A DNA stretch of 64,000 bases from Blasia pusilla (lineage: Eukaryota). The stretch spans positions 25,482,001 through 25,546,000 of the forward strand of contig CM114271.1 in NCBI GenBank assembly GCA_050084515.1. Reading direction: 5' to 3'. Position numbers and translations under genes: made by a program. Below are positions 20,223 to 63,100 of the stretch, piece after piece. Each line of letters begins with the position of its first letter. Within the stretch, counting starts at the first letter, position 1. The notes beneath the pieces were generated by a model. The model ran no database searches. It worked only from the letters and a program-made list of their open reading frames with translations, and was not told the origin of the DNA.

Positions 20223-21041
20223 TGTCGCGACCCTCATAACCAAACAAACAGCAAGCAAATGTCAAGCGAAACATCAAAACTTTAGTGGGCTCACACTACG
20301 ATGATTGCGCTTTGGAGAGGTCTCTTGGAAAAGTCCAAGAGACAAAACGCACATTAGAGTTTGTGCGTTTTATGCATTTAAGGTCGCGATCAGAAAACCG
20401 CGACCAAACGTGAACCAAGACTTGAGATGAGTTGAATCTAGGAAGATTGGTTTCCAAAGAGGTGAGAACCAGATTTGGAACGCGACTAGCGTTTGGGGAT
20501 TTAGTCCCAAGATGCATTTGGGACAAGTAAGGTGGCATTGGAAATCTTATGCAAAGATAATTGCAACCCACCAAATATCTTAGAGAACGCTTAAGTAGAG
20601 GTTCAGATATTTTCCGAAAACAACGGTAAGAGGAGTTTGGTTGAGGGCCAAAATGAGGGGCCCAAGTGTCTTTCCCCAAAGTTAGGGGGAGGGCGGAGAT
20701 GCCCATAAGTACTAGTAAAGGGGAGTGTCTCCAAGTATTCTTGGAACCCAAACCCCACTTTAAGCGCCAAGCGGTATCTCAAGGGCACGGGATAGAACGG
20801 GAGTTTGGCATTGGAACTCGAAACCTTGTAAGACTTGCCTGTATTATAAACTGCGAAACTAGGAAGATTGATCTTGATGAGAGGCCGAGTCGAGAACTCT
20901 AAAAGTTAGAATGATGATTGATCCAGACCCGACTAACGTGAGTGTGTGTTTGGGTGCAAATCAGCATTGAGAGTCTATCCTACTAAACGCACGCTTCGGC
21001 AAAACTAAAGATTTACGTTTAAGGAGAGTATACGTACGACA
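20223..21041 (+). mobile_element. Solo LTR, family A (internal ~190-bp deletion)
   Basis: TGTCGCGACC...TACGACA termini; perfect 5-bp TSD TAAAG (20218-20222 and 21042-21046); homologous to 38118-39128. Confidence 0.93.
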
Positions 21042-21049
21042 TAAAGTGT

Positions 21050-22030
21050 AATACATTGTGGATTACAAAGCAGTGATACTTGGACTCTGGTGATTTAAGT
21101 ACACTTGCGCTTTTTTGGAGATTATGGGAGTGGATGTCCATCATAGGAGGGGCTATTACTTTGGAAATGGACAGAGCTAGATCCAGTGGGAGGATGACCC
21201 TCAGAGTTGAATGCGTCGTCAGGATTGTGGATGGCTTGAGAAGTGTTGTGTTGATTGGCATTTGGTAACTCTGAGATTATCCCTCTTCTTTAGTTGTCTT
21301 AAAGTGAGAAAATAGGTGTGATGCCTTAGCAGAGATTAGGTCCACCAGGATATTAAGAGGGAGCTTCATGATAACTCTCAACTCTTGAAATTGATCAAGA
21401 TTTACTCCACCTGTAAGCCGTGTAAAATGGGCAGTTGTCTGTTGCCTTGTGAGTTCCAACTCATTGAACGGAACCCCTTTGTGAACCATGACCTCCTTCT
21501 GGATACATGATTGCACGAAGAATGCAAATAGAAATTAGATGTAGTATAACACAGAAAAGACAAGAACAAAAAATGTAATTGGTAAAACAATAAGTGTAGG
21601 GAATTATCCGTAGCAAGTGGCTATTTTTTGAGTTCTCTGAAGGACGCCACCTAGGCTTTCCTCAGGATAATAAGTCGGCTCATTTTTCGGCTTGAGATAT
21701 CGCCACCATTGTAGGATTGATCTAAGCCTAAGCTATTAGCATACCTCAACTGCGCATCAGTTGGAGGAACCACTTAGGGGCGGTTTTCGTGAGGTAGATC
21801 GGGCATATCATTTAAAATCATCTCGAAAAATTCAACGTAGGACCTTGGTACCTAAGAGCACTGTAGTCAATAATAGAGCATAACATTTGTAATATCTAAG
21901 AGCAAAATTTGCTATGCACAAACTTGAGTAGCTTGTTGACCTCGTTGGTCATCCCGATTCGGTACTGGTTTTGTTGTGTTTAGAGCATGCTCGTGCTTTG
22001 ATCCATCTCCAGTTGCCATACTAGTGTAAA
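21050..22030 (-). pseudogene. Helitron accessory gene A remnant (DUF3072-like repeats)
   Basis: PPTDAQLRYANSLGL...ISSRKMSRLI, IQKEVMVHKGVPFNELELTRQQTT and LVDLISAKASHLF, homologous to 40472-41025. Confidence 0.65.
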
Positions 22031-22074: not shown

Positions 22075-25000
22075 CTATGTTTGAGTGAACACATGAAAAT
22101 TTGAAGAGCATAGGGACCCTAAAATGCACAATTGAGATGTATTCTTAACCCTAGAGAGCATACCATATACGAGGCCAGGTGCAAAAGCCAATTTTTATTA
22201 CCAACAAGCATCTCCCATCAATTGTAAGGCCTTGACTTTTATGGCCAGTCCTAGCGTAGCCAAGGACGATAGGAAATGTCTTCTTATGGTATTTCTAGTT
22301 TGGACCAAAGCGCAAGGTTAAGAAGTTTGTGCGCGTGACACTGATGATCTTGCTATTGGAATGTAGCTTGACAACAATAGCTACAATCTGGTCGGCAACA
22401 TAAATGCATTCAATAACAGTGACAAAGGCATCGTTGACTGCCTTATTAGTGATGTCAATACTTGAAGTTAATCGCACCTTGCAGCCAAGGGCTAGATAGT
22501 GAATTTGATGGAAATTGTTGTCCTCAAGCCATTGATGAAATTGTGGTATCACTGGGTGCATCACAAGAAACATGCATAGGAAAATTTTCAGCACAACCAT
22601 TGTCTTCTTAGTGCAATCAAGTTGAAAAGTTGCACATCGGGACGATGAGAACAAATGATCTGTGTATCCTCATGTACAAAGTCAATAGCACTCTTTTCAT
22701 CCACAAAGCAGTGGGCCAGATGTAAGTTTATTTCATCTTGGCTCGGTCTTGTAACCCTAACGCGTAACAAAAAATTGAGGAATGAAGGGTCACCACTATG
22801 CCTTCTTTCTATCGATTTTTGATATTTAGTCATAGCATCGTAAAAAGGTGAGGATGAGATGTGACATAGTAAGCAAAGTTAAGATGATTTATGATGACAC
22901 ACTAAGGGGAGTTGAGAAAGATCACCCACCAATGTAAGGAGTTTCTCTGAAAAGGGATTCAAGTTTGGCTATGAAGATACTTAATGTAACCTCTTAACAA
23001 CAATTTCCCATAAACAGGGTGTGAGCATAGAACACTCGTCTATAACTACAACCTTGGATGTCTTAAGCCGGATGTACTGATCAGAGGTAGTGTGCATAGA
23101 TGGGAGATACCCCTTAATCGGTATAGCAAAGGAAGAGTGAACAATAACGACACTAACATGCAAGCGTACAGCATCAATAGTTGTGGTGGCAGTGAAGAGT
23201 GAGTTGACAAAAATAGAAGTCCAATATTTTTGCATGAAATGCATAAAGAATGTCTTACCATGCTGACTTGTCAACATGATGAGACCGGATCTGAGAGTTT
23301 AAATGACGTGAAGAAGACTTACTTGCTGTGAATTGAGGGGACTGGTAGATGTAGCAACCTGGGAGGGATAGTCTACTCTGATAGAACCTATAGTCTGGTT
23401 GATCTGTGAAGAACACATTTTAGAGGAAATTTGTAACTGCAGTTGTGAGCGAATCAAGTCTAAAGCTTTGGATATGCTTTCCCTTGCATGAACTTCAACC
23501 CATATATTGGCGATTGCGTGCTCTCTGATCTCATCTACAATTTATGATTAGTCTGTAAGTATACCACAAAATATACACTCATCGAGATAAGACACTAAAC
23601 AAGTTTGCCTCAGACCTGAAAGAAACATTTTGCAATAAGGTAGTGTAGAAGAATTCATTCCATTGGTGCAAGGGATTAAATTATGTGAACTAGACTAGAC
23701 GATCAAGTTAATTTGTAGATGAGGCTACCAAGCAAGTCGTGGCCGAGAAATAAAATGCCTTACTAATTTTGCTATGTGTTTAAAGAATCTCATAGCATGA
23801 CCATAGCTGAAGAAAAAAAGGTTAATGTAGATAGGGAATCTGGCTGATGATAATACAATATTGTTGGGTGTATGCAAAGAACTGTAGTATTTTTATAAAG
23901 ATGAGTTCTCCTATGCACAGGGCTAGAATCAATATACTCAACAGACGGGGATCTAGATATAATAGGAATCTTGAGAGATGTGAGTGTTGCTTCTGTGGAT
24001 GACACAGTTCTATTTAGTACAAGTCCAGATATCAATTTTAGTCTAACTTCATTTATGACTTCAAGCCCTAAACACCTAATCCGCTGCGAGCTGATACGGC
24101 CCAATTCTTGGCCGTATCAAGAATTTGGGACTTAGATAGTATATAATTACTAAAGAAGGTTTTTAGTCTCGTGTGAAACAAGACTGCGCTCTTGACTGGA
24201 GCGTCCCTCCACCAGAAGTTAGGATTAAACCTTTGTACTAAAGGCTCGATGTCGCTGATCTCTTGCCATCTTGTGTTAGATACTTTGTCAGAGACAAGGG
24301 TAAGGAACATATTAGGCATCCCCCATTTAGCGATCATGGTTTTCCATTCTCTTAGGTGACGACGATGCTACGATGGCCTTTCTAGCATGTGGGCACTGAA
24401 ACTATACCTAGAAAGCCATGAATAAATTTCTTCGTTCAACATATCAATGTTATTGGGTTTTAGTTGCTCAACCTCTTTATTGAGGATACATCTGTAGCTT
24501 GAAGATGTTAAGCTAATAGATTGTTGCAATTGATGCATGATGAGTATATGTGGTTTATAAAGTGTGAAAACAGTGAACAACTCTCTAACTTGGTTGCGCA
24601 TATAGTCAATAAAGGATGACTAAACTGTGAAGTATCCCCTCATGTAGTTAAAAAGGAATGGAAAGATCCTTGTTTCAATGGTGAGACGAAAATCTGGTGA
24701 GATCCCATACCGGTCACTAAGAAAGTGATTCCTTGATTGGGCAGCATCTCTGAAAAACACACTTCTATTGTGGAAGATATCATAAGATTTACGCCTTTTC
24801 ATCGACAAGGAGTACTTGACATCTTGAAGAACATTAAGTTCTGCGCTATACGGGTCGGCTACCATACTATGAGTAAGCTGACCTTTATTTTATGATGCCT
24901 TAAGTATGGCCCTCAACTAAGGATGAAGGTAGAACTACAAGACCACATTGAGGATGAGGAAGTTCAATCAATGGCATATATTGTAGATATAGCTCGCTTA

Positions 25001-25450
25001 CCTACATATTAACCAATAGAACTTTTTTGACCTACCTGTAAATGAGGTTAGGTTGTAAAGGGGTTGCATCACAGGCGTTCCAGGATATCAATGGGCAATC
25101 GATAAGGGATTCTACCCGAAAAAGACTCTATGAAAGCCAATGTACTAAGCTTCAATACCCAACCTAGAATCAACAAGAGAGAGCATCTAAAGGTGTAAGG
25201 GATTTATTTCTAACACATCTCAAATATACGCTCGTGTCATATAAACATTACATTCAGTGCTCCCGCCGCTTGTTGCACAATGGTACGTGGCAAATGTAAA
25301 AGCAACCACGCGTTGGAATGATGTAGTTGATCATGTATCCATTACACAAGGCATACGGAGGGTAAATATGTGAGGTAATGATTGTCATCCCTGAATGCGC
25401 GGAATGGTAACATACATACCCACAACAGCTGGAACACTTCATTTGGTTAA
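22075..25450 (-). pseudogene. Helitron Rep-PIF1 helicase remnant, copy 1 (HUH/Y2 core deleted)
   Basis: LTIETRIFPFLF; MIAKWGMPNMFLTLVSDKVSNTRWQEI (Rep motif I); LNRTVSSTEATL; degenerate Walker A (HGKTFF); VIDECSML; LALGCKVRLTSSID; TFPIVLGYARTGHKSQG; YGMLSRV. Confidence 0.9.
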
Positions 25451-25464
25451 TTAGTGATATTTTA

Positions 25465-25890
25465 CATTTTTGGCAAATATCTCAACCTCTGCTTAAGCAT
25501 TTTATGAGATCTTTGGTGCATTGAAATCACCTTTTCCTAAGCTTTCCAACGCCATCTTACATATCCCAAACACATCTTGAGACTAAACATCATGGTCCAA
25601 AATAAAGTCAAAATCCCCAAACACTAGTTGCGTTCCAAATCTTGTTCTCACCTCTTTGGCAACCAACCTTCCTAGACTCAACTCATCTCAAGTCTTTGTT
25701 CACATTTGGTCCAGGTTTCCTAGTTGCAACCATAAACTCATGAAACACAAAAACTCTATTGCGTGTTTCGTCTCTTGGAATTTTCCAACAGACCCCTCCA
25801 AATCGCAATCCTCGCAGCGTAAACCCACTAAAGTTTTGATGTTTCGATTGGCGTTTGTTTGGTGTTCGTTTGGTTATGAGGGTCGTGACA
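25465..25890 (-). mobile_element. 5' part of a family A LTR inserted in Helitron copy 1
   Basis: Minus strand begins TGTCACGACCCTCATAACCAAAC and follows the 38118 LTR for ~425 bp, then is truncated. Confidence 0.88.
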
Positions 25891-32809: not shown

Positions 32810-35800
32810 CACAAGTGATATTTAAATTTTTTTATTACGGCCCCAGCTTAGAGCCCTTAAAATGCGATTCGCTTGGAGGTTGGTGCAGAACCAAATAGTT
32901 TCTGCATTTGCACCAGGATGAACCAACGACTCATCTTAGTGACATGTCGTAAGATCATTGGCGTATTCTATATAGGGTTATGCTTTCGCCGCCGTTTTGG
33001 TAAGCCTCGCGGGTTCGTATTCAATATTTCTTGTGAACCCATCGAGCGTCGAGTTGTACTAACGTTGAACTCTATGTATTCAAGACTCTGTATGGAAGTC
33101 TCCAATGCAATGAATGAGGTCTAGCTCCGTTGCTACCCACTTCGGTTGTGGATTTCATGTACACGAATTATCGTCGATACAACCATTCAATGTCAACCTA
33201 TCAATTTCACATGTTTACTATGCGCTAGCCATTGTATTTGGCAACGATCCTCTCCACAATGTATATTACCCATTAGGGCTTTAGCTTGTGTCACAAGGAA
33301 TTCAATTATGAGCTAACAATCATATGTGAATGTAAGCTTGGATATTCATGGAGCCTCTGCGTATATATACCGTTTTGGTGCCCAATATGAGCATGTTGTA
33401 TCGCTTGCTTGGTTGCTTGACCTATTTCGAGCTTTGTCATTACACATTCTAGTTAGACGTAATGTCTTTCTTATGCTCAAGTTGTTAACATCCCCTTCAA
33501 CCGCACCTTGTACTTCATTGTAGATTGTATCAGAGTTACGACAGAATCCACTTGGTGTTTGGATGTATTCGTGAAGAGCCATTTTATTACTATTTAAACA
33601 TCCAACATCATTGTAATCAGCAATGTCACCAACATCACCAACCATTTTTTTGTGTCAGACTGTATCACAACATTACCTGATGAGGGTCTCCACCCTCGAT
33701 TTGATTTAGTTCAGTTGTTTATTAGACTATTTGGTCAAAGCCTTAAACACATCCGCCATACAGATACTCTGTGGCGGTTCTCCAGCGACATTTTTTGTTT
33801 CCTTTTCCTCACATATTCATGGTAGATAATTACAATTAATTTCTTCAGCCTCCATGATCCACGGATCGTAGCTTGCAAGGTTCTATACTCTATTTACGCA
33901 TTCATCCAACCGCACTATGTTTGATAGCACATAAGCTTCCTTAGTCTCCTGATTGCTTTGCACTTGGATTCTTATTTGCTCCACCAAAGTTCTTCCGTCA
34001 AACATTCTGTCCTCAAATCCTTCTCAATACGGATTTTTCCCCTTTGTTAAGTTTGATTGGACCTATTATCTTTGGTATGTGCTACCTCTGAACACTTCAC
34101 CTTTGTAGAATAGTCTCAATTTTGTCAAATTTTGTACTGCCAATAAGTATGTTTGTTGGATTATATATGGATTTCTTGCTGGCATGTGATGATATTCCAA
34201 TAGTTTATTGTAATGTTCACGCTTGTTCCTAAAGGTAATGTTAGTGTCTTTAACATCTTTAGTGTGGTGTTGCATCAGAGTCCCATCGGCAAGCTTCACT
34301 TCCAGGACCAGACCGTTTGGACACATAGCTTCCAGGTATGTCGAGAGCTTATGATTCATTAACTTCGTCACATCTCACAATAAGCAAACGAATTCGTATG
34401 AAGAGGCTCGCTGCACCAAAAAGATGTTTAGGTAGACAGCCAAATTGCCCAATTTGATATGACATAGAAGTACTCATGGACGAGTGGGTATCACTACGCT
34501 GATCATTTTTTGGTTCGATGCAATGATGTGGTATGTGCGGGTTTGTTCATTCAGGAAACTCATCCCGCCTTAAGTTTCAATTCGTAGCTTCTATTTTCTA
34601 TCCATCTTATGCACTTTGCAACGCTTTTATGATAGACTTCATAATTCCACGTAGTGGATTCCACTACGAGAGTAGTCGGTGTTCTTCCACAGCTAAAATT
34701 GAGGCATTCAATGTATATATGACCCCAGCATGTATATAAGGCATTTTGTCGTGTAACCCACTCTATTTACAACTCCTATCCTTGATCGATTCTAGAGTAG
34801 GGATAACCTCCAAATACAATGGATTCCATAATGGTTTTTTTACAGTCAAAAGTTTATTAGATAACCCTTTGGTACACTGGAATATGACCACTTACAAATA
34901 TGAGAATGTTGCTGCTATATACGGTCAAGTTTGACGTATAATGCTTGTAAACTTGCATATAAATCCACTCTACAAGGATTGTTTAATACTGATTGAACTC
35001 CCAAGTCCTTCATGTGGTTTGGTAATTTTACCTCTGTTGACAAGATTTTCAAAGCCTCACAGGACAAGGGTCTTGTGACACACACAATGAACATTGATCC
35101 ATATAAATGTGATCTGAATATCATTCATGACATTCAATATTCTATTCCTGTAAAAAAAAAAGGTCAGGATAAATTTTTTATAATGGAAGTATGTATTGCA
35201 GACAACGATCATCTCTGCGTACCAACCTCATAACTGACTTTTGGGGGATTGAGTGATTATAGAAGGCTCACATTGGAGACTAGCATATTTCCATTTTTGT
35301 TTCCTTACCTTCGTGGATATTTCAAAGGAAACATTTCTTTTGTTGATTATATGAAAGGAAGAGCTTCACAGTTATTCTCTGTATTTACCCTTTACAAACC
35401 TTATTTACTTTTGATGTATAAATTAAAACAATCGATAGCACTTGCAACCTCAAAAAAATCATGCATTCTCAACAAGGAATTAGACACACTCCGTATCACA
35501 AATCGTGAGATGTCAGAGGATGACCTATTCCATACCTTACCAAAGCATTCGTTAAGTCCTCAAATTTTGGGCAGCCCCGATTGGCATAGAAGGCACTAAA
35601 AGATCTTAAAGCTATGGTGAACAAATGGGGAATGCCCCATTTTTTTCTGACATCGACATTAGATGAGTTATTTGAAACAAGGTGATAGGAAAACTCACAG
35701 CTTGAGTTATTACTCAAAAAAATGAACCCTAGTTTTGTTTGGAGAGATGCACCAGCAGAGTATGACGTCCTATTCCATGTCAGGTTGCACTCATTTTTTT

Positions 35801-36867
35801 AAAATTATTTTTGGTGGTCACCAAATATTGGGCCAGGTTCTACATTATGTAATAAGGTATGAATTAAAAGGTTGAGGTAGCTTACATAGTCATCTTATTT
35901 TATGGTGTGTTGAAAGTGGTGTTGATATTACGACCTCCGAGATAGCCTCCTTTGTCCCTGCCCCCATAGACAATACCACAAATTCTTTTATACACCATGT
36001 TGATAAGTCTATTGATGAACAGTTATTGAATCTAGTTTTGCATAAACAATTACACGTTTGCAAGCCTTTTGCATGCTCCCATGTTAGCAAGTCCATGAAC
36101 ACTCGATTCTGCAAACTAGGTTTCTATGCAAATACTTATCCTCTCTTAACTCCTTCAGTAGATCTAGAAAACCATAAATGGAGATATTACAGACCTTCAT
36201 GGCTTGACAAGGATGTTGTTCCAAACCACCCAATTTTCCTTATTCTTTGGGCTGCACATATGAATTTGCAGCTAGTGACAAATGTAGATTGGTCTTTTTA
36301 TCTAATAAAATATGCATTGAAAAGTGAACCACTTGGTGCCCTAAACATTGATACCGAGACAACAATGAATCTTGGTCTTGAAGGTTTGGAAGATATCCAA
36401 CTCAAATTGGTTTCTGGTGTTGTTTCAAATAGATCCGTTTGTTCAACAGAGGCAACCCTCTCTTCTCTACAAATTCCTGTTATAACTCGTTCCAACTCAC
36501 TGACATATATAGATTTCAATCCACCTTCAAGAAGGACTTCTCCGTATCGTAAGTCATCACTTGTTTGCCTCCATCCCATTCAGATTTACTGCCATAGATC
36601 TGCTAGCTTATCACACATTACATTTACTGATTATTGGGAAAATTTTGAAGTGGCAAAAATAGAAAAGAAGACAAAAGATTTTTTTGGCATGAATTCACTT
36701 GATGGATTTGTATTCAGACGATCTAAACTTGTAAGGTTTACAAACTTTAGCCTTTTGCATCACCTGGATGAATTTTTTTATAATTTGCTCTTATCGATGA
36801 CAGCCTCCACGTCAGAGTCTCAGCTTACATCAATGTGCGGTAAGAGTTGGACTTATTTGCACGAATG

Positions 36868-37490
36868 TGTCACGACTGTTAGGATATATCGGTGTGATCT
36901 AGCAAATCGTCTGCAAGAGTAGTGGAGGACATGCCCAAGAGGTCAAGGATGACATGTTGAGGCCCCGGGAAACCCGAGAGAGCAAGTTTCCCCTTCGTTT
37001 CGGCTCATTTGGAGCCAGATAGAGAAACTTACTATTTCAGGTAAGTTTCCATATTGGGGATAGTTGACTTTCCACTTTGGGAAGTGGCCCTTGACCCGCT
37101 ACAGCATGTCAAGAGCCAAGGAGGTGATTTGCGAGCATAGGTTACCGTTGAGAGTGCTTGGGAGGGGGAATATACCTCCAAGAGAGAGTGCTTGAGAGTT
37201 CATTCTCTCTTTGTTGAACCTCTTCGCATAAGGCGGCGGAGCTACGGTCCCTTGCCTTGTGAGTGCAACCCAAGCCTCTCATTAGGAGAGTGGGTTTGGT
37301 TTGACATGAGACAGAGTGCACACCTTTGAGAGCTATGGTGTGAGATGGTGTTGAGAGAGATTGGATCTTACTTTATTGGAGATATTTTGGTACTTCTGGC
37401 CTCTGTGTATGGATGCCATGAGTTAGCATGGGATCGTGTGTGTTTGATGACAGCGGTGTATGTTGTGTAACAATGTGTATGCGCATGACA
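36868..37490 (+). mobile_element. Solo LTR, family B (623 bp)
   Basis: TGTCACG...GCATGACA with 4-bp TSD AATG. Removing it restores the Helitron frame YLHECVHRNI. Homologous to the reverse complement of 59192-59825. Confidence 0.93.
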
Positions 37491-38117
37491 AATGTGTTCA
37501 TAGAAATATAGTTAGCTCTATTGATAACATTCAGGATCTAGTTAGTGATTATGCAACTAAAAATATGTGGAGTCATATATAGGCTACTAAAACTATTACC
37601 AAAATGGATGCTTTGCTAACTGAGGCAAAGTCCTCAAAATCTATATTATTACTACCGGTTCCTGATCCTTGTCAAAAAATAACATTATCCATTGATTTTG
37701 GAAGTAGTAGTAGAAGCATCTTCTCACCCTCAAACTTAACAGCAGACCAGTTTGGCATGTTTTTGATATTGAAGACACCGGAAAAAGGAATCCATTTGAT
37801 AAGTGGAGCTCCAGGGACAGGTAAGTCTTACTTCATGAATTATATGGCAACTTATTGGCAGCAACTAGGTGTGTGTGTGTAATAATGCTAATTGCTACTA
37901 GATGAGTCGCAACAGTCAGACTAAATCCATTTGCAACCACTCTCCACTCTACATTCAACATCCACTGAAAGATGATCTACCATGTCTTCTGTCAACATCT
38001 GATGTGTTTCAGAGAATAAGAAACACAGATGTTGTGAGTATTGACAAATGTTCAATGATGACATCTAAATTACTACAGATTGTTGCAATGCGACTTACTG
38101 ATATTTCACCCACACGT

Positions 38118-39128
38118 TGTCGCGACCTTCATAACCAAACAACACCAAATAGGTGCCAAGCGGATCATCAGAATTCAAGTGGACTCACGCTGCGATGTTT
38201 GCGCTTTGGAGAGGAGTTTGGAAAGGTCTCTTGGAAAAGTCCAAGAGACGAAACGCGGAACAAAGTTGTGCATTTCATGCGTTAGTGGTTGCGACCAAGA
38301 AACCTAGACCAAACGCGAGCCAAGACTTGAGATGAGTTGAGTCTTGGAAGGTTGGTTGCCAAGGAGGTGAGAACCAGTTTGGGGAATTTGACTGTGTTTT
38401 GGACCATAACGTTTAGCCCCAAGATGCATTCGGGACAAGTAAGGACGCGTTGGAAATCTTATTTTGAGATGCTTCCAATGCACCAAAGAACTTAGCAAAC
38501 GCATAAGTAAAAACTAAGATATTGGCCAAAAACGACTATGAGAGCAATCGGGTCGAGGGCCAATTGGAGAGGCCCGGGTGTCTTTCCCTAAAGGTAGGGG
38601 GACGCCGGAGATCCCCAAAAGTACTAGTAAGGGAGGAGTCTCTCCAAGATGTCTTGGAAGATGAATCTCCACTTTGAGCGCCAAACGATGTCTTAGAGGC
38701 ACAGGATGGAACGGGAGTTTGGCATTGGAACTCAAAACCTAAACCTGATCCAAGGGAGTGGACTTTGTACGCCACACTTGGATTCCAACCCGAGATTCAC
38801 TTTGTGCGAGTCTCGGTTAGGGACTCATTGGATGTCCATCTGACAGTTGGAATCGCCAAGCGCGAAACGCCGTTTGAGGTTCTTGAACCAACCATAAAGT
38901 CTGTCCCAAGTCTTGCAAGACTTGCCCATGTTGTAAACCGCGAAACTAGGAAGATTGAGCTTGATGAGAGACCAAGACGAGAACTCAAAAAGTTAGCCCG
39001 CCGATTGATCCAAGAACCAACTAACCAGAGTGTGTGTTTGGATGCAGATCAGTGTTGAGAGCGTGACCTACTAAATGCACGCTTCCGCAACAACAAGACT
39101 AACGTTCAAGGAGAGTAAGCGCACGACA
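38118..39128 (+). mobile_element. Solo LTR, family A (1011 bp)
   Basis: TGTCGCGACC...GCACGACA; 5-bp TSD CACGT/CATGT (one CpG transition); splits the helicase. Confidence 0.93.
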
Positions 39129-40074
39129 CATGTGGTCATAATCCATTTGACAATAAGGTTGTTGTCCTTCTTGGAGATCTGTGTCAGCTTCTACCAGTTT
39201 GCACCCACTCCTGTATTAGTGGATGCAAACATTGTAACACATCTTGTTCCCCTTTTTTGACACGTATGTCTAAGCATTATCTCACTACTGCTATGAGGCA
39301 AGCTCTTGATCCAACATTTTTGTCATTTCTTAACTCCATTCATCTTAGATTTCCAACTTAATAGGCTATTGATAATTGTTTGGGTATATGCATGGTTAGC
39401 ACTAACCAAGCATTGGACTTCATTAACAACACAACCATAGTAATATGCTCTCACATAGTTGACGTGAAGTTGTTCAACACTATTTGTTTACGCCGATTTT
39501 TGGGTGAAGAAAGTATAATATTAGTCTTTGTTGATTTGGATGCATGTCATGTAGAGGATTTGCAGAGTTGGATTCAGGAGGGTGACTTCCACAAAATTCC
39601 ATTTCTAGCTATAGGTTGTAAAGTTTTTCTCATTGCAAACCTCAATGTAAGTAAAGGTGCAACAAATGGATGCCTAAGAATTGTAAAGGAAATATTGGTG
39701 TATAACATTTGCATTAAAAAAAATGTTGTTCAATTAACTACTAATGATTCTATCATAAAAGTTAGCAGATCTGCATCTGAGTTTATATACACAAAGAACA
39801 TAGAAAAGTATTATAAACGTACTTTTCCATTCATGCTCTCTTATGCTATAACAAGTCATAAATCTCAAGGTAGCATTGTGCCTAGCACATGCCTTGTGGT
39901 ATTGAAGAGTGCATTCACTTATGGTTTAACATATGTTGTGTTGTCTAGAGTTTCATGCAGATCAAACTTGAGAATTTTAGGCAAACTAGCCCCATCAGAT
40001 TTCTTGGTACATGGTCAAGAGCCAGCAAGTTAAGTCTAACAACCAACAGTACTTGAATCTTTCAGATTTCATCA

Positions 40075-41220
40075 ATGACAACCAATGGAAAGTCTCTAGC
40101 ACGTCCTCTTTACTTCTCTGACAATGATGACAAGACTAATCATATTTCAAGTGTCTGTGGACCTGGGAGTTCATCCAGCTACTAATTATTAGGCACCAAA
40201 GATGTCCAATCGACTACAAGTCAGCTTCAAAATTCCACATTGGATAAGCTTTTAGCCAGTATACGACGGCCTTCAATAACAAGTCTTCCTACTTGTATAG
40301 TAAGCATTCCTATCAGATCTCCTACCTTTTTCATTTTGTACAGTTCAACCTTACTTCCTTTCCAATTTCAGTAATCCTTTTTTCTTGTCAATTTACTTCA
40401 TCCACACTACTGGGAGTAGCCAACATGCCCCTTCCTATCTTCATTTAGTGTCTTGTCTTTGTATTTTGCAGGCCCCACCACAGAGTGATGAGTTTGCTAA
40501 ACTATTGCTACAAGAGATTCCTAGAGACACAGAGCCACAACAAGTTGTGCTCACATAGCCTTCTTTGTTGCAAATGAGATACGCTAACAATATGGGTATC
40601 CTTCCCACATGGCAAGATGGCATTACAAAGAGGGGAATTTTTCAAGATGATAGATAACCAAAAGTCATGGGATGCAATGTTCAGGGATGAACACAATGCT
40701 CCTCCAACAAGTGGTAAGAGTTGTTAACTTCTTCTTTTTTGCTTGTTGATTCCATTCTTGTGAAACTGCAGCTTAAACTCTCTCTGTCATGTATTGCAAG
40801 AATTCAGAAGGAAGCTTTGGAATTGAAAGGAATACAATTCAATGAACAAAATCTTACAAAAGCTCAGACCACTAAGGAGCTTGCTCCAGTGATAGAGAGT
40901 ATCAGGCTTCCACAACTTACAGAACTCAGACACATTTTTTTATACCCATGGATGTTATTATAGACTTAACATCAGCCCAAGCAATGATTCTGCTTTAAAA
41001 AATACATGAAGCAAAAAGAAATGGCTTGTTGCTGAATATCCAGCCACACAATGTGATTAATCTTGATGACTTAGAAGATCTTGGTCCAGACACAAAGCCC
41101 ATTAGTTCTCCTTTACAACCTCGTACCAATGATTATACTGTTAGACTTAGTTCACAGTCGGCACCATTCACTACATCTGATTCGTTTCTATCACCAACCA
41201 AATGTCAGAGAGAATTTTGA
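40075..41220 (+). pseudogene. Helitron accessory gene A remnant (spliced; three DUF3072-like repeats)
   Basis: Acceptor ttttgcag at ~40471 and donor gtaag at ~40714. Peptides PSLLQMRYANNMGI...ITK, PPTSA*..LSCIARIQKEALELKGIQFNEQNLTKAQTT and DLTSAQAMILL. Confidence 0.65.
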
Positions 41221-41499
41221 TTTATTCCATGATAGTAATGTAGTAAAGCTCTTTCGGAGTGCTATGACATACCAATGTTTGTTTCTCATAGTGTTTCGTG
41301 TTAAGTTTTTTGAAATCATCTGAATCAGTTCATATATTTTCATTTTCAACTTGATCAAATTCACATTCAATTTCTTGGATCTCATTTTGAGTCCTGGAGT
41401 TCGATAATTATAATGGCCTCAACCTTGTATTGAGTTCAGCTAGGCTATGTCTTTTTCCTACTGGGTAGTTTCACTACCCAGTTCTTCTGCTGATAGATT

Positions 41500-58419: not shown

Positions 58420-59191
58420 GCAAAGAGAGAAGGAGGCAAAAAATATCCTTGGGTTGAAAAAAACTTAGATGTCTGTGTAATGAATGCAAAGGGATGAGAA
58501 TGAGAATGCTACATGTTATAGAGAAGCACCTTATAATGTATAATAGGTGATCTCCAAATGGAATATAGAAGAACATTAATGAATATGATTCATCAGATGA
58601 TGAGTGGAGGTCTGTTTTTTCAAGACACGAGAATATAAACATAGATGAGACTACTCGAGATCCTGGTGTTAATTGTAATATCAAGATATCCATCCCATCT
58701 GCCATAGATCTTGATGAAAATATAGAGATGCATAAGATGATCAATGAAGCCTTTCATCAATATGACTATGAACACATAGAGGAACCCCGTGATGAAGACG
58801 AACCAATTGCTGACATAAATGAAGATGGAACTCCTTTTGAGATAGAAGATGATGAACAAGAATTAGGATGTAACGAGGAAGATTGGGTAGTTGATGTTAA
58901 GACATTATATTAGGTTTTTCGCTCTTTATTCACGGGAAGTAGGAGTATGAAATTAGCGTTCAAAATGGTATTCTTGAATATTTGTGGCACCCACAACATT
59001 CCAAATGTTGTTGTTAATGATATTTGAAATTCTTGAGTTTACAAATCCTTCCTAGTAATAACCATATCCCTAAGAACCACTATTCATCGATGAAACTCAT
59101 TAGAAATCTTGGACTTAATTATATCCAAATCCACGCTTGGCCCAGAGGTTGTATGTTGTTTCAAGATGCATACAAAGGACTAATTGCATGT
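58420..59191 (+). pseudogene. CACTA (En/Spm) transposase N-terminal remnant, cut by the gypsy insertion
   Basis: LRCLCNECK...IEKHL (transposase-associated domain), an acidic linker, then ILPSNNHIPKNHYSSMKLIRNLGLNYIQIHAWPRGCMLF..YKGLIAC, matching the TnpD 'LGL.Y.KIHAC.N.C.L' motif. Confidence 0.85.
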
Positions 59192-59825
59192 TGTCGTGCG
59201 TATACACATCGCTACACAACATACATCGCTGTCACCGAACACACACACAAATACGCACGATCCCATGCTAACTCGTGGCATCCAAACAACGAGACAAGAA
59301 GTACCAATATAAAGTAATATCCAATCTCTCTCTACACAATCTCACACCATAGCTCTCAAAGGTGTGCTCTCTCTCTCATGTCAAACCAAACCCACTCTCC
59401 TAATGAGAGGCTTGGATTACACTCACAAGGCAAGGGACCATAGCTCCGCCGCCTCATGCCAAGAGGTTCAACAAAGAGAGAATGAGCTCTCAAGCTCTCT
59501 CTCCTTGGGATATATACCCTTCCCCTCTCCCAAGCTCTCTCCATGGTAACCTATTCTCCCAAGTCACCTCCTTGGCTCTTGACCTGATGTAGGAGGTCAA
59601 GGGCCACTTACCAAAAATAGAAAGTCGATCATATACTCAAAATGATACTTACCTAAAATATTAAGTTCCTCAATATGGCTCCAAATGAGCCAAAACGAGG
59701 GGAAAACCTGCTCTCTCAGGTTTCCCAGGGCCTCAGTAGGTCATCCTCGGCCTCCTAGGCCTGTCCTCCACTACTCTTGAAGACGCTCTACTAGATCTCA
59801 TCGATCTATCCTAAAGGACGTGACA
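59192..59825 (-). repeat. LTR family B, full copy (634 bp)
   Basis: TGTCACG...GCACGACA on the minus strand; homologous to 36868-37490. Confidence 0.92.
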
Positions 59826-59827
59826 AC

Positions 59828-59955
59828 TGTCGTGCGCATACACATTGCTACACAACATACACCGTTGTCACCAAACACACACACAAATACGCACGATCCC
59901 ATGCTAACTCATGGCATCCAAACAATGAGACAAGAAGTACCAAAATATCTCCAAT
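59828..59955 (-). repeat. Partial LTR B (3' 128 bp) directly after the PPT
   Basis: Duplicates 59192-~59320; separated from the full LTR by 2 nt. Confidence 0.88.
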
Positions 59956-60141: not shown

Positions 60142-63100
60142 CTATGTACATTTGAGACACATCCATCGTCCCCGAGGAACCCTAGTGACAGGTGGTGTCA
60201 GACATGCCAGATGCCAACTTCTTGAACAACCATCATAGACTAGCATCGTGACCGCGCCACGGGCAGAACCACACAACATACAATGCAAGTGTCGCGCCCC
60301 TACTCTCCTTGAACGTCAATCTTTAGTGTTGCGGAAGCGTACGTTCAGTAGGTCACGAACTCATCGCTGATCTGCACCCAAACACGCACTCTCATTAGTC
60401 GGGTTTGGGCCAACCAGCGTTCCAACCCACCGAGTCCTCAACTCGGCGTCTCATCAAGCTCAACCTTCCTTAGTTCCTAGTTTCCAAAACATGGCAAGTC
60501 CTTCAAGACTTGGAACAGACTTCATGGTTAGTCCAGGGATCTGAGACGGCACTTGCGCGCCTAGCGATCCCAACTGTTCAACGGTCCTCGGGTGAGTTCC
60601 GAACCGAGACCCAAGTAATTGATTCGCGGGGTGGAATCCAAGAGGGATGTCTAAAATCGCCTCAATGGACTTGGTGCAGGTTTTCCAACCCAACCCCCAA
60701 ACTCGCGTTTCGTTCCATGCCCTTGAGCCGCCCTGCGGCGCCCAAAGTGGGGTTTGGGTTCCAAGCACTCTCGGAGACCTCCCCCCTTTCTAGTACTTCT
60801 GGGGTTCTCCAATAACCCCTCCCCTTTGGGAAAAGAGGGTCGGGCCCTTCATTGTGGCCCTCAACCCGACTCCACTTACAATCTTTTTCGGGTTTTATCT
60901 CGGCCGCTGCTTATGCGTTTGCAGCGATCTTTAGTGCGTTTGGACTGGCTCTCCATAAGCTTTCCAACGCATCCTTATTTTCTCCAAACGCATCTTGGCG
61001 CTAAAAGTTATGGCCATAAATACAGTCGGAAACTCTCAAACGCTAGTGGCGTTCCAAATCCGGATCTTTCCTTTGGCAACCCACTTCCTAGACTCGACTT
61101 CTTTCAAGTCTCATTCTACGTTTGGTCCAGGTTTCTTAGTCACGACCATAACATCTGAAATGTGACTCCTCGCTCGCGTCTCGTCTCTTGTCTCCTCTTT
61201 GAGACAACTCCAACGCGCAAACCATCTTAGCGTGAGCCCGCTAATGTTCCGATGTTCCGCTTGGCACTTGTTTGGTCATGAGGGTCGCGACACTGCAAGC
61301 CTACAGGAACTACTGCTGAGCTCGGATCCACTGTACGATCAATTTTAGGAAGGTGACATGGTGCACAATTACGCACATGGTCCTTCCATACCATACCATC
61401 GCGTTCCTCCACCAAGAGAACACCGGATGGCAAAACGTCACGCACTCTCAAGATAGTGCGCCCTGTAGTCACATCCAACGTCGACGGTGTTGTCTGTTGC
61501 AAGTAGACATAATCTCCCTGATGAAACCTCCGAATAGTTGGTTTGATAACCACCAGCCCGAATAGTCGCATACCTCAACGTATCCCGATGTTGTGCAATC
61601 GCCAAGTTCTCGAACGCCATGGGCATCACTCTCGAAACAACTCAGCCCTCTGAGAACATGCTCGCATCCATACATCTGGGTCATCAAGGTCCATCACCTC
61701 ACCAGTATCTCGACGAATGGCCGCAGGTAAATCTGGCTCTCGGCCATAAAGTAGCAAGTACGGTGAGAAAGACGCTAAGGATGCCTACCTGCTGAATGTG
61801 TATCCCATCGCCAACCAGGGAAACTGGAGGTCCTAATCTCCTAGGTGACCTCTTTGCAAGCCATACTTGCGTAAAACCCTCTTCACCGTCTACACAACTC
61901 TCTCCGCTAATCCATCCGCCTCGGGATGATCTCACAAAGTCGTACGATGGTCGATGAGCGCCTGATCACACAAGGCCTGGAACTCACCGCGAAACTCGGT
62001 ACCCTGGTCTATCAACACCTCAGCCGGTGCGCCATAATGACTCAGCACTCTGTCAAGGAAGGCATAAGCTACTCCCTCACTCTCTTTGTCAGGAAATACA
62101 ACCAACTCGATTCAATTCGAGAAGTGCTCGACCATCACCAACACATAACGACTATGACGCTCGTCAAAGGCAAAGGTCTTGCAAAATCCAAACTCCATCT
62201 ATACCCTAAGCCCATGATTGATAATGGATGCAATTGTGGAGTCGGAGTATTGAACGATGCTCGGACCCGATCACACACCATGCACTTGGCAACAAACTGC
62301 TGAACGTCATTCTGCATGCCTCGCCACCAATATTGAATCTGGAGCAAGCAATACCTCCGCTTCATCCCAAAGTCACCCAACTCCTCGTGGGCATGTTGCA
62401 CTAGTCGTGCTCTTAGCGAAGGATGTGGCACTACGCGTACTCTGCCATCCTCCCAAACCCTCAAAATATGTGTCACCTCCCAATGGAACCGTCTGGCCCG
62501 CTGTAGGATCCGATATCGCTCTCTAGCACCCACAGTGCTTGCAACGCTTCCAGTACAAAGGTACTCTAAGACTACTCCATCATCATGAATATCTCGGCCA
62601 CTTGTCGTCTCCTCACTTGCCTCGGGATCCAAGGACTCTCTACTAGACCTCGCCATCGAAGTCTCCACACTCTAGCTCTCCATAGCCAACATGCCTAAAT
62701 AGGCTGACGCGTGCCATCCTGGCACTGACTCCTCATCACTCTCTCCATGCCATCGAGCTCCAATCGCATCTCGTTGACTCGGGCATGGGTTAAGACTCAA
62801 CCCATCTACATCCTGGTTGAGCGTCCTAGGTCTTTGTACCACCTGAAAATCATATTCTTGCAACAATAGAGCCCATCTTGCAAGCTTCACTGTAAGCTTG
62901 TCGGACTCCATCAATCACTTCAGTGGTTGATGATCAGTGATGATGGTAAAGGGGTTGGCGAATAAGTAACACCTGAAATGTGCGAGAGCCCACACGGCAG
63001 CCAAGCACTCACCCTCATACGAGATGTACTTCGCCTCTGCAGCATTGTTCGAGCGGCTAGCATAAGCCACCACGAACTCTCTACCCTCATCATCATGTTG

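Follow-up and report, generated by a model that had tools for sequence, protein, structure and literature searches.

An apparently undescribed accessory gene family behind the RepHel transposase gene in two decayed Helitrons of Blasia pusilla

Introduction

As set out in published surveys of Helitrons, the genes that recur in these transposons beside the transposase gene RepHel are RPA-like, OTU and endonuclease genes (PMC11417382, PMC4683698). In elements of the HLE1 type the RPA domain is described as enriched downstream of RepHel, and the RPA-like gene is presumed there to help handle the single-stranded intermediate (PMC11417382; PMC4683698), while HELIANO lists 20 further Pfam domains that Helitron-like elements carry stably (PMC11417382). 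Here we describe a gene that lies directly behind RepHel in two decayed Helitrons within 64,000 nucleotides of DNA from Blasia pusilla (GCA_050084515.1, contig CM114271.1, positions 25,482,001 to 25,546,000 of the forward strand), the whole of which we call the window. The gene belongs to a family of Helitron accessory genes that is real and apparently undescribed; it follows RepHel in both elements, and has diverged between them about as much as RepHel itself. Like the RPA-like genes it is an extra open reading frame (ORF) carried with RepHel, but unlike theirs its product has no OB fold and no Pfam match, being small, all-helical and composed of three units. We consider it fairly probable that these are decayed copies of a genuine accessory gene, kept by selection in an old bryophyte-type Helitron lineage as a nuclear cofactor of rolling-circle transposition.

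The known accessory genes do not account for this one. Pfam models of Rep_fac-A/OB, OTU and Exo_endo_phos matched none of the window fragments and none of six of the seven family proteins described below; in the seventh (P0005), the Exo_endo_phos domain lies in a separate N-terminal part resembling a long interspersed nuclear element (LINE), outside the accessory module. An initial annotation of the locus, made from the sequence alone, had pointed to this gene and knew of no earlier report, and we likewise found no description in the listed Helitron literature on mosses and RepHel or on liverworts and Marchantia, a search that lay outside bioRxiv supplements and supplements in PDF form. HELIANO could not have seen the family, because its list is Pfam-based and the family has no Pfam model (PMC11417382).

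Results and discussion

Two Helitrons share one gene behind RepHel

The window is eukaryotic DNA with a GC content of ~34–54% and contains two RepHel relics (Table 1). On copy 2, the fragment at 24071–24367 (−) matched Helitron_like_N in Pfam (E 1.8e-7; 32.0 bits against a cut-off of 28.9), identifying the Rep/HUH domain, and the helicase matched PIF1 at E 3e-5; fragments of copy 1 matched AAA_30 (E 1.3e-4), PIF1 (E 3.3e-4) and Pif1_2B (E 0.0088). These helicase scores fall below the curated cut-offs because the reading frames are broken into short pieces, and the single Rep-region fragment of copy 1 that was scanned gave no Pfam match, its homology to copy 2 being that found by tblastx. In tblastx alignments Rep precedes the Pif1-type helicase on the same strand in both copies, protein identity between the copies ranges from 32 to 54% segment by segment, and the two proteins stop at homologous C-terminal positions (with LRILGKLAPSDFLVHGQEPAS and LCILGSLCSSNFHVFTQT immediately before the respective stop codons).

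Immediately downstream, on the same strand, the accessory gene starts 41 nt past the RepHel stop in copy 1 and 55 nt past it in copy 2, with an ATG at the matching place in each (MTTNGKS and MATGDGS). The three motifs read by the initial annotation directly 3′ of RepHel in both elements are all present there. Within the window, the gene accompanies each of the two RepHel relics, and its two copies both lie behind RepHel. The two accessory copies are 44% identical over units 2–3 (MAFFT), 33% over unit 1 and 36% by tblastx, and the similarity of this 33–44% range to the 32–54% of RepHel points to co-inheritance rather than recent capture. Searches with tblastx and blastn on either side of the two elements returned no common sequence beyond RepHel and the accessory gene. 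With nothing but one downstream gene common to both elements, we therefore recognise one accessory gene and not two, and the proposed layout of RepHel followed by genes A and B was not borne out.

The gene appears to have been spliced, as initially annotated, judging by its intron borders. Intron 1 runs from GT to AG, is in phase 0 and interrupts the same protein position in both copies, just before the pattern (P)xS.(E)F..L(L/I)..(I/M)P. Two intact relatives, P0006 and P0008, continue uninterrupted across the point of intron 2 in copy 1, and residues 1–118 of P0006 align to 40502–40948 (tblastn); the phase of that intron is off by one base, which implies a 1-nt indel in a dead copy and fits its decay. 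The ancestral gene would thus have started with its own ATG on the RepHel strand, ~40–55 nt past the stop of the transposase, and would have contained two short GT–AG introns.

So short a distance from the RepHel stop, with no promoter evident, also suits a gene model in which there is no separate gene, and the 3′ exons are instead spliced to RepHel around its stop codon to give the transposase a C-terminal extension. A second cistron would be unusual in eukaryotes, and exon 1 is poorly conserved, both of which favour such an extension; it is nonetheless very improbable in our view, given that the ATG is kept at the matching place and the RepHel stop at the homologous position in both copies, and that four relatives (P0003, P0004, P0006 and P0007) are complete short ORFs on contigs of 578–1491 nt, their proteins containing no helicase sequence. 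Longer, fused forms did not come up in a word-index search; this is weak evidence, as the search was insensitive and missed the known 545-residue relative P0005.

Both accessory copies in the window are pseudogenes. Copy 1 is interrupted by in-frame stops at 40183–40185, 40556–40558 and 40996–40998 and by frameshifts near 40636 and 40940, and copy 2 by stops at 21776–21774, 21653–21651 and 21279–21277, along with the loss of the start of unit 2. In a DNA run under the same species label, read depth on the copy 1 element outside its nested repeats was ~0–3× per strand column, compared with ~195–1140× in the bins covering the repeats, and the Helitron is therefore a single-copy fossil at an identity of at least 88%; both copies of the accessory gene are single-copy fossils in this genome. 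Three RNA-seq runs under the same species label, sampled at 6–12%, left 23 of 30 bins without a read, among them all those of the accessory gene, and reads fell on the two nested repeats only. Because the window copies are dead, we do not count the missing reads as evidence on expression of the family.

Intact relatives in protein databases

A profile built from two window fragments only, searched against 1.84 billion representative proteins, returned seven matches, of which six (P0002–P0007) are true relatives with E-values from 5.8e-9 to 1.3e-4, and a similarity search for near relatives added P0008. Intact relatives of 114–205 residues are among them, and the same columns are conserved in every member of the family. 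All three units stand in one chain in P0006 (191 aa) and P0008 (205 aa), again indicating one gene and not two, and these two proteins match the window copies over a stretch that begins with the leader (ILDELPSDDVP.. against LLQEIPRDTEP.. and ILNDMPDLPHE..) and takes in the G-(L/I)-L-x-(D/E)-(V/I/L)-P motif past unit 3. When six family proteins were searched back against the 64 kb by tblastn, only the two loci behind RepHel were found, all six proteins matching copy 2 at 21504–21280 with E-values of 8e-11 to 1.4e-6.

Copies as full of stops and frameshifts as these could in principle reflect chance similarity in the non-coding tail of a Helitron, with no gene at all. The profile matches, reaching E 5.8e-9 among 1.84 billion proteins, the intact relatives with their shared conserved columns, and the return of the tblastn back-search to the two loci refute this explanation, leaving it a probability close to nil. 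The top-ranking match of the profile search (P0001, E 1.9e-10 over 8 stretches) is unrelated to the family: it is a 954-residue predicted protein of ~16 near-identical tandem repeats of ~60 residues, and was rejected as a repeat-driven false positive.

Three of the relatives, P0002, P0005 and P0008, are annotated in the liverwort Riccia sorocarpa as hypothetical proteins, and no other named proteome among the 1.84 billion representatives gave a match to the profile, a patchy distribution of the kind that a transposon gene would be expected to show. The Riccia relatives are annotated as ordinary stand-alone genes, and Helitrons often carry captured genes, with 20 extra domains in the HELIANO list (PMC11417382), so the accessory gene might be a host gene, or a piece of one, captured by an ancestral Helitron and with no role in transposition. 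This origin is unlikely, as a conserved host gene would be expected in the other annotated plant proteomes among the representatives, where no relative was found, and the gene occupies the same position and strand, 41–55 nt from the RepHel stop, in elements whose transposases are 32–54% identical and whose accessory modules are equally diverged. Searched alone in the word-index protein search, P0006 found only itself, and its 117 pattern matches among metagenome contigs included none that was confirmed.

A basic protein of three predicted helix-loop-helix units

The family protein has three predicted helix-loop-helix units of ~40 residues and a basic core (isoelectric point (pI) 8.7–10.2 in six of six members), followed by an acidic linker. 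Near the C-terminus, four of the six carry a basic cluster (PAKRR, PGKRK, PPKKGK or PAKQK), and P0002 and P0008 have an internal SKK(R/H)ER cluster and then an acidic end; by their composition these clusters resemble nuclear localisation signals. The ancestral product would have been a protein of ~190–200 residues in which a variable N-terminus preceded the three tandem units, all of them of the form P-x-(T/S)-x-x-Q...(F-D-E)-x-x-L-T-K-x-Q-A-x-x-L-I-x-x-L, and in which the conserved G-(L/I)-L-x-(D/E)-(V/I/L)-P motif, the acidic linker and a short basic end resembling a nuclear localisation signal would have come after them.

In an AlphaFold2 (AF2) model of P0008 predicted from an 8-row alignment, the predicted local distance difference test (pLDDT) score was 72–93 over residues 101–180, with helices at 103–115, 127–137, 143–152 and 165–180; the model is thus confident over units 2 and 3 only, which are predicted as two units of a helix, an ~11-residue loop and a helix. 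Internal repetition is consistent with this layout, units 2 and 3 aligning to each other in the expected register (hhalign, P 0.0019). Searches of the ESM Atlas gave a best feature score of 0.86, to clusters without a name, and structural matches to phage proteins at template modelling (TM) scores of 0.29–0.44, all below threshold; its named-cluster search returned nothing. The absence of a fold match for the accessory protein does not show that its fold is new.

Likeness to the bacterial domain DUF3072

The initial annotation compared the units to the bacterial and phage DUF3072-type pattern (PF11272). As a reference we used a 34-sequence profile of real domains from bacterial genomes, leaving out four loci from unpublished genomes; DUF3072 occurred in 1/5, 5/201, 3/201 and 39/201 of the bacterial genomes sampled. 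Real members score 85–113 bits on PF11272, for which the gathering score is 27.5 bits, whereas hmmscan gave no PF11272 match in any of seven family proteins or 11 window fragments, even at E ≤ 10. The pattern given there does match the consensus of 30 real domains (EKDPxDWVTGDEPMTGPQxSYLxTLAxEAGExxPxDLTKAEASxxIDELQ). In profile–profile comparison, unit 3 aligned to DUF3072 with an HHalign probability of 85% (P 5.9e-6; score 28.0; 35 columns) and unit 2 with a score of 16.9 (P 0.0027), none of 150 shuffles doing as well in either case, and unit 1 scored 16.0 (P 0.006), which 2 of 150 shuffles equalled. The three units share one register, which covers positions 14–55 of 56 in DUF3072 and leaves the conserved head of the domain out; a reversed-profile control scored ~8, and the family as a whole gave a probability of 39–41% (P 3.1e-4). 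The likeness proposed in the initial annotation is supported in pattern and register, but not by Pfam, which never scores it.

The resemblance also holds in reverse. When a hidden Markov model (HMM) of the pooled units was run against 3087 bacterial open frames, 34 of them with DUF3072, DUF3072 frames made up the top 21 of 21 and 31 of 33 matches at E ≤ 10. A merged-unit profile scored 25.6 against DUF3072, compared with 19.0 for phage Mu GemA (PF06252), 11.7 for Rho_N and 6.2 for SAP, all three being weaker matches than DUF3072. For unit 3, GemA scored 18.7, SAP 8.9 and Rho_N 7.4, while unit 1 is not specific (GemA 17.3, Rho_N 14.9, SAP 14.0). The Rho_N and SAP scores of 6–15 come from small home-made profiles (30 Rho_N and 9 bacterial SAP sequences); neither domain has a Pfam match in the family proteins, and the SAP domain of MANF fits unit 2 at a Z of 3.1 only (root-mean-square deviation (rmsd) 2.4 over 37 residues). 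The C-terminal helix of GemA, L-(S/T)-x-x-Q-A-x-x-(V/L)-I-E-x-L-K, is like the second helix of the units.

Judged on these profiles, the resemblance to DUF3072 is real and fairly specific, but short, lying mostly in one LTKxQAxxLIxxL helix. Like the accessory units, DUF3072 follows a pattern of the form P-x-T-G-x-Q-x-S-Y-L...(F-D)-x-x-L-T-K-A-E-A-S-x-x-I-D-x-L, and AF2 predicts a helix, a ~10-residue loop and a helix in both proteins. The units, however, are without the invariant KDPxDW..GDEP head, and the accessory protein is basic, tripled and encoded by a eukaryotic transposon, whereas DUF3072, with a median net charge of −7 and a pI of 4.3 (n = 34), is acidic, consists of one unit and is encoded on bacterial chromosomes. 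The domain stands alone at the end of a small protein in 10 of 10 frames inspected. The initial annotation described it as a module also appended to nucleic-acid enzymes, which our sample does not support: among 90 bacterial neighbouring frames scanned, none of five DUF3072-bearing frames had a second Pfam domain, and the neighbours were miscellaneous, with no recurrent partner. DUF3072 is not mentioned in the literature we searched, and appears neither in the 20-domain list of HELIANO nor in one supplementary file (PMC11417382). We do not claim membership of the family in DUF3072, because the domain, in the bacteria sampled, is an acidic single unit that stands alone. Common descent of the units with DUF3072 is possible, and the likeness could reflect either remote common descent or a recurrent helical solution.

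These comparisons bear on a stronger reading of the locus, in which the protein is a true tripled DUF3072 homologue serving as a dedicated cofactor that binds single-stranded DNA or hairpins in a multi-gene RepHel + A + B element. In its favour, every unit matches in one register with unit 3 well supported, the reverse HMM ranks DUF3072 frames first, DUF3072 outscores Rho_N, SAP and GemA, the helical layout recurs in both AF2 models, and the accessory core is basic. We nevertheless find it improbable, given the silence of PF11272, the missing head, the acidic, single-unit and stand-alone nature of DUF3072, with no recurrent nucleic-acid neighbour, and the absence of a second common gene beside RepHel. 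P0006 also had no tblastn match at E ≤ 1 in 50,697 phage and 72,556 plasmid records, and the structure that best fits the DUF3072 model is that of a domain binding protein, not DNA.

That match is the C-terminal domain of lambda Red beta, which two programs place first among solved structures for the DUF3072 model. The AF2 model (m144c72f06a00, from loci L120–L157; pLDDT 83; helices 16–29 and 39–53) aligned to it in Foldseek with a probability of 0.98, a TM score of 0.66, an rmsd of 2.4 and an E-value of 0.2, and in VIA-align with a Z of 5.4, a value in the range common for small helical models, at an rmsd of 1.7 over 47 of 55 residues, the next unrelated match reaching Z 4.5. According to the titles of its structure entries, the C-terminal domain of Red beta has lambda exonuclease and the C-terminal peptide of the single-strand-binding protein SSB as binding partners, making it a small helical adaptor in single-strand DNA metabolism; two steps separate it from the Helitron protein. 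It was not retrieved by the Helitron family model among the matches listed by Foldseek or VIA-align, and a PDB profile search with DUF3072 showed no sequence link to it, giving one noise match at E 1.2. The predicted fold likeness is a possible first functional hint for DUF3072, a lead and not a finding.

Proposed role of the accessory protein

We infer that the accessory protein was selectively kept as a nuclear helper of rolling-circle transposition, where it would stand in for the RPA-like genes of angiosperm Helitrons. Two mechanisms may be envisaged. The three basic helix-loop-helix units could bind DNA directly, for example at the terminal hairpin or the displaced strand, a role we hold to be possible but doubtful. 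To a similarly tentative degree, the protein could instead connect RepHel, as an adaptor, with a partner, for example the host RPA or single-strand-binding complex, by analogy with the C-terminal domain of Red beta. Whatever probability these two leave belongs to some other function, or to none. A narrower version, in which a tripled adaptor of the bacterial type (of the DUF3072 or Red beta C-terminal domain kind) would hold RepHel or the excised single strand to the single-strand-binding machinery of the host, is decidedly less probable than either.

Several observations weigh against a selectively kept transposition helper. Its function is a matter of pure inference, both copies at hand are dead, and its linkage to RepHel is shown in this 64-kb window only, at two of two loci; the case is limited to these copies and a few relatives from databases. 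In P0005 the module stands at the C-terminus of a 545-residue Riccia sorocarpa protein, not behind RepHel but after a LINE-like region resembling an RNA recognition motif-containing ORF1 and an Exo_endo_phos domain, although this is probably a merged gene model across a nested transposon insertion. The failure to find longer fused forms, weak as it is, belongs here too.

The structural evidence is open to similar doubts. The initial annotation read three related helical repeats, and the relationship of units 2 and 3 stands, but unit 1 is weakly supported by hhalign (P 0.064 against unit 3 and 0.39 against unit 2), and the P0008 model as a whole, built on 8 sequences, has a pLDDT of 65 and deserves only moderate confidence. 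Pfam found nothing relevant to the accessory module in window fragments or full relatives, PHROGs and NCBIfam returned only noise (E ≥ 0.05), and a PDB sequence profile search with the family gave no matches. The family model fared no better: its best Foldseek match in the PDB, at E 1.4, named no fold, the best of 48,161 chains in VIA-align was a designed repeat protein (Z 4.8), and the best match in BFVD combined E 0.041 with a TM score of 0.13. The best E-value of the reverse test was just 0.0032, mainly on the 16–17-residue helix dLTKaqAskLIerL, and the weaker likeness to GemA suggests that motifs of the LTKxQA type may be a common helical solution.

Other features of the elements

A perfect 10-bp hairpin, found in an inverted-repeat search 240 nt past accessory gene copy 1, may be the 3′ terminal hairpin of the Helitron. 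The ends expected of an autonomous Helitron are a 5′ TC and a 3′ hairpin with CTRR behind it, inserted between A and T; no CTRR end was recognised after this hairpin.

Two high-copy repeats are nested in RepHel copy 1. The first has a DNA depth of ~400–1140× per strand column and is also related to 1346–1542; RNA reads on it are strongly strand-biased, reaching ~88× in the sampled reads, and read joints that go back from ~37443–37495 to ~36868–36917 hint at copies in tandem or circular form at other places in the genome. The second, of ~1 kb, splits the helicase, whose tblastx segments start again at 39140, and has a depth of ~195–475× per strand column. It occurs four times in the window, two occurrences in opposite orientation abutting both ends of Helitron copy 2, and RNA-seq reads cover it, many molecules starting at 38607.

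Table 1. Features of the two Helitron elements in the window (positions as numbered within the 64,000 nt)
Feature	Coordinates	Strand	Details
Accessory gene copy 1	40075..41220	+	ATG 40075, stop 41218–41220; sequence reading
Copy 1 exon 1	40075..40299	+	ATG 40075; N-terminus poorly conserved; in-frame TAA 40183–40185
Copy 1 intron 1	40300..40471	+	GTAAGC...TTTGCAG, phase 0
Copy 1 exon 2	40472..40714	+	leader LLLQEIPRD.., unit 1, start of unit 2 (PPTS)
Copy 1 unit 1	40559–40655	+	PSLLQMRYANNMGILPTWQDGITK..
Copy 1 intron 2	40715..40771	+	GTAAGA...CTGCAG; 1-nt phase mismatch
Copy 1 exon 3	40772..41220	+	rest of unit 2, unit 3, G-LL-x-I motif, acidic linker, tail, stop; profile matches, tblastn, alignments
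Copy 1 unit 2	40701–40900	+	PPTS, then intron 2, then ..SCIARIQKEALELKGIQFNEQNLTKAQTT
Copy 1 unit 3	40901–41022	+	QLTELRHIF.. / IPMDVIIDLTSAQAMILL
Accessory gene copy 2	21122..22019	−	ATG 22019; sequence, MAFFT, tblastn
Copy 2 exon 1	22019–21924	−	sequence reading
Copy 2 intron	21923–21852	−	GT..AG, phase 0
Copy 2 unit 1	21767–21654	−	PPTDAQLRYANSLGLDQSYNGGDISSRKMSRLI
Copy 2 units 2–3	21510–21280	−	CIQKEVMVHKGVPFNELELTRQQTT...QFQELRVIMKLPLNILVDLISAKASHLF
Copy 2 frameshifted tail	to 21122	−	GIISELP...
RepHel relic copy 1	34527..40033	+	Rep, then Pif1-type helicase; stop codon 40031–40033; many stops and frameshifts
RepHel relic copy 2	22075..25436	−	stop codon 22077–22075; Pfam and tblastx
Perfect 10-bp hairpin (candidate 3′ terminal hairpin)	41460..41482	+	ACTGGGTAGT ttc ACTACCCAGT; inverted-repeat search; 240 nt past accessory gene copy 1
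Nested high-copy repeat 1, inside RepHel copy 1	36859..37491		blastn to 59191–59955
Nested high-copy repeat 2 (~1 kb), splits copy 1 helicase	38118..39132		blastn to 20223–21041, 25467–25890, 60286–61292

Conclusion

In conclusion, two decayed Helitrons in one window of the Blasia pusilla genome carry, directly behind RepHel, copies of an apparently undescribed accessory gene whose intact relatives occur in protein databases. Surveys of Helitron accessory genes are Pfam-based, and families without a Pfam model are therefore missed by them. The family offers a defined candidate of ~190 residues for the binding of DNA, RepHel or RPA, and DUF3072 gains a first hint of context, as a predicted helix-loop-helix module whose modelled fold is closest to a phage recombination adaptor. 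If the accessory protein were indeed a tethering adaptor of bacterial type, it would functionally replace the RPA-like gene that angiosperm Helitrons carry and, next to the Pif1 helicase, would be a second sign that Helitrons have prokaryotic ancestry. That the place behind RepHel was kept while both genes fell under 50% identity suggests that some Helitron lineages needed a helper beyond those of the RPA, OTU and endonuclease kinds.

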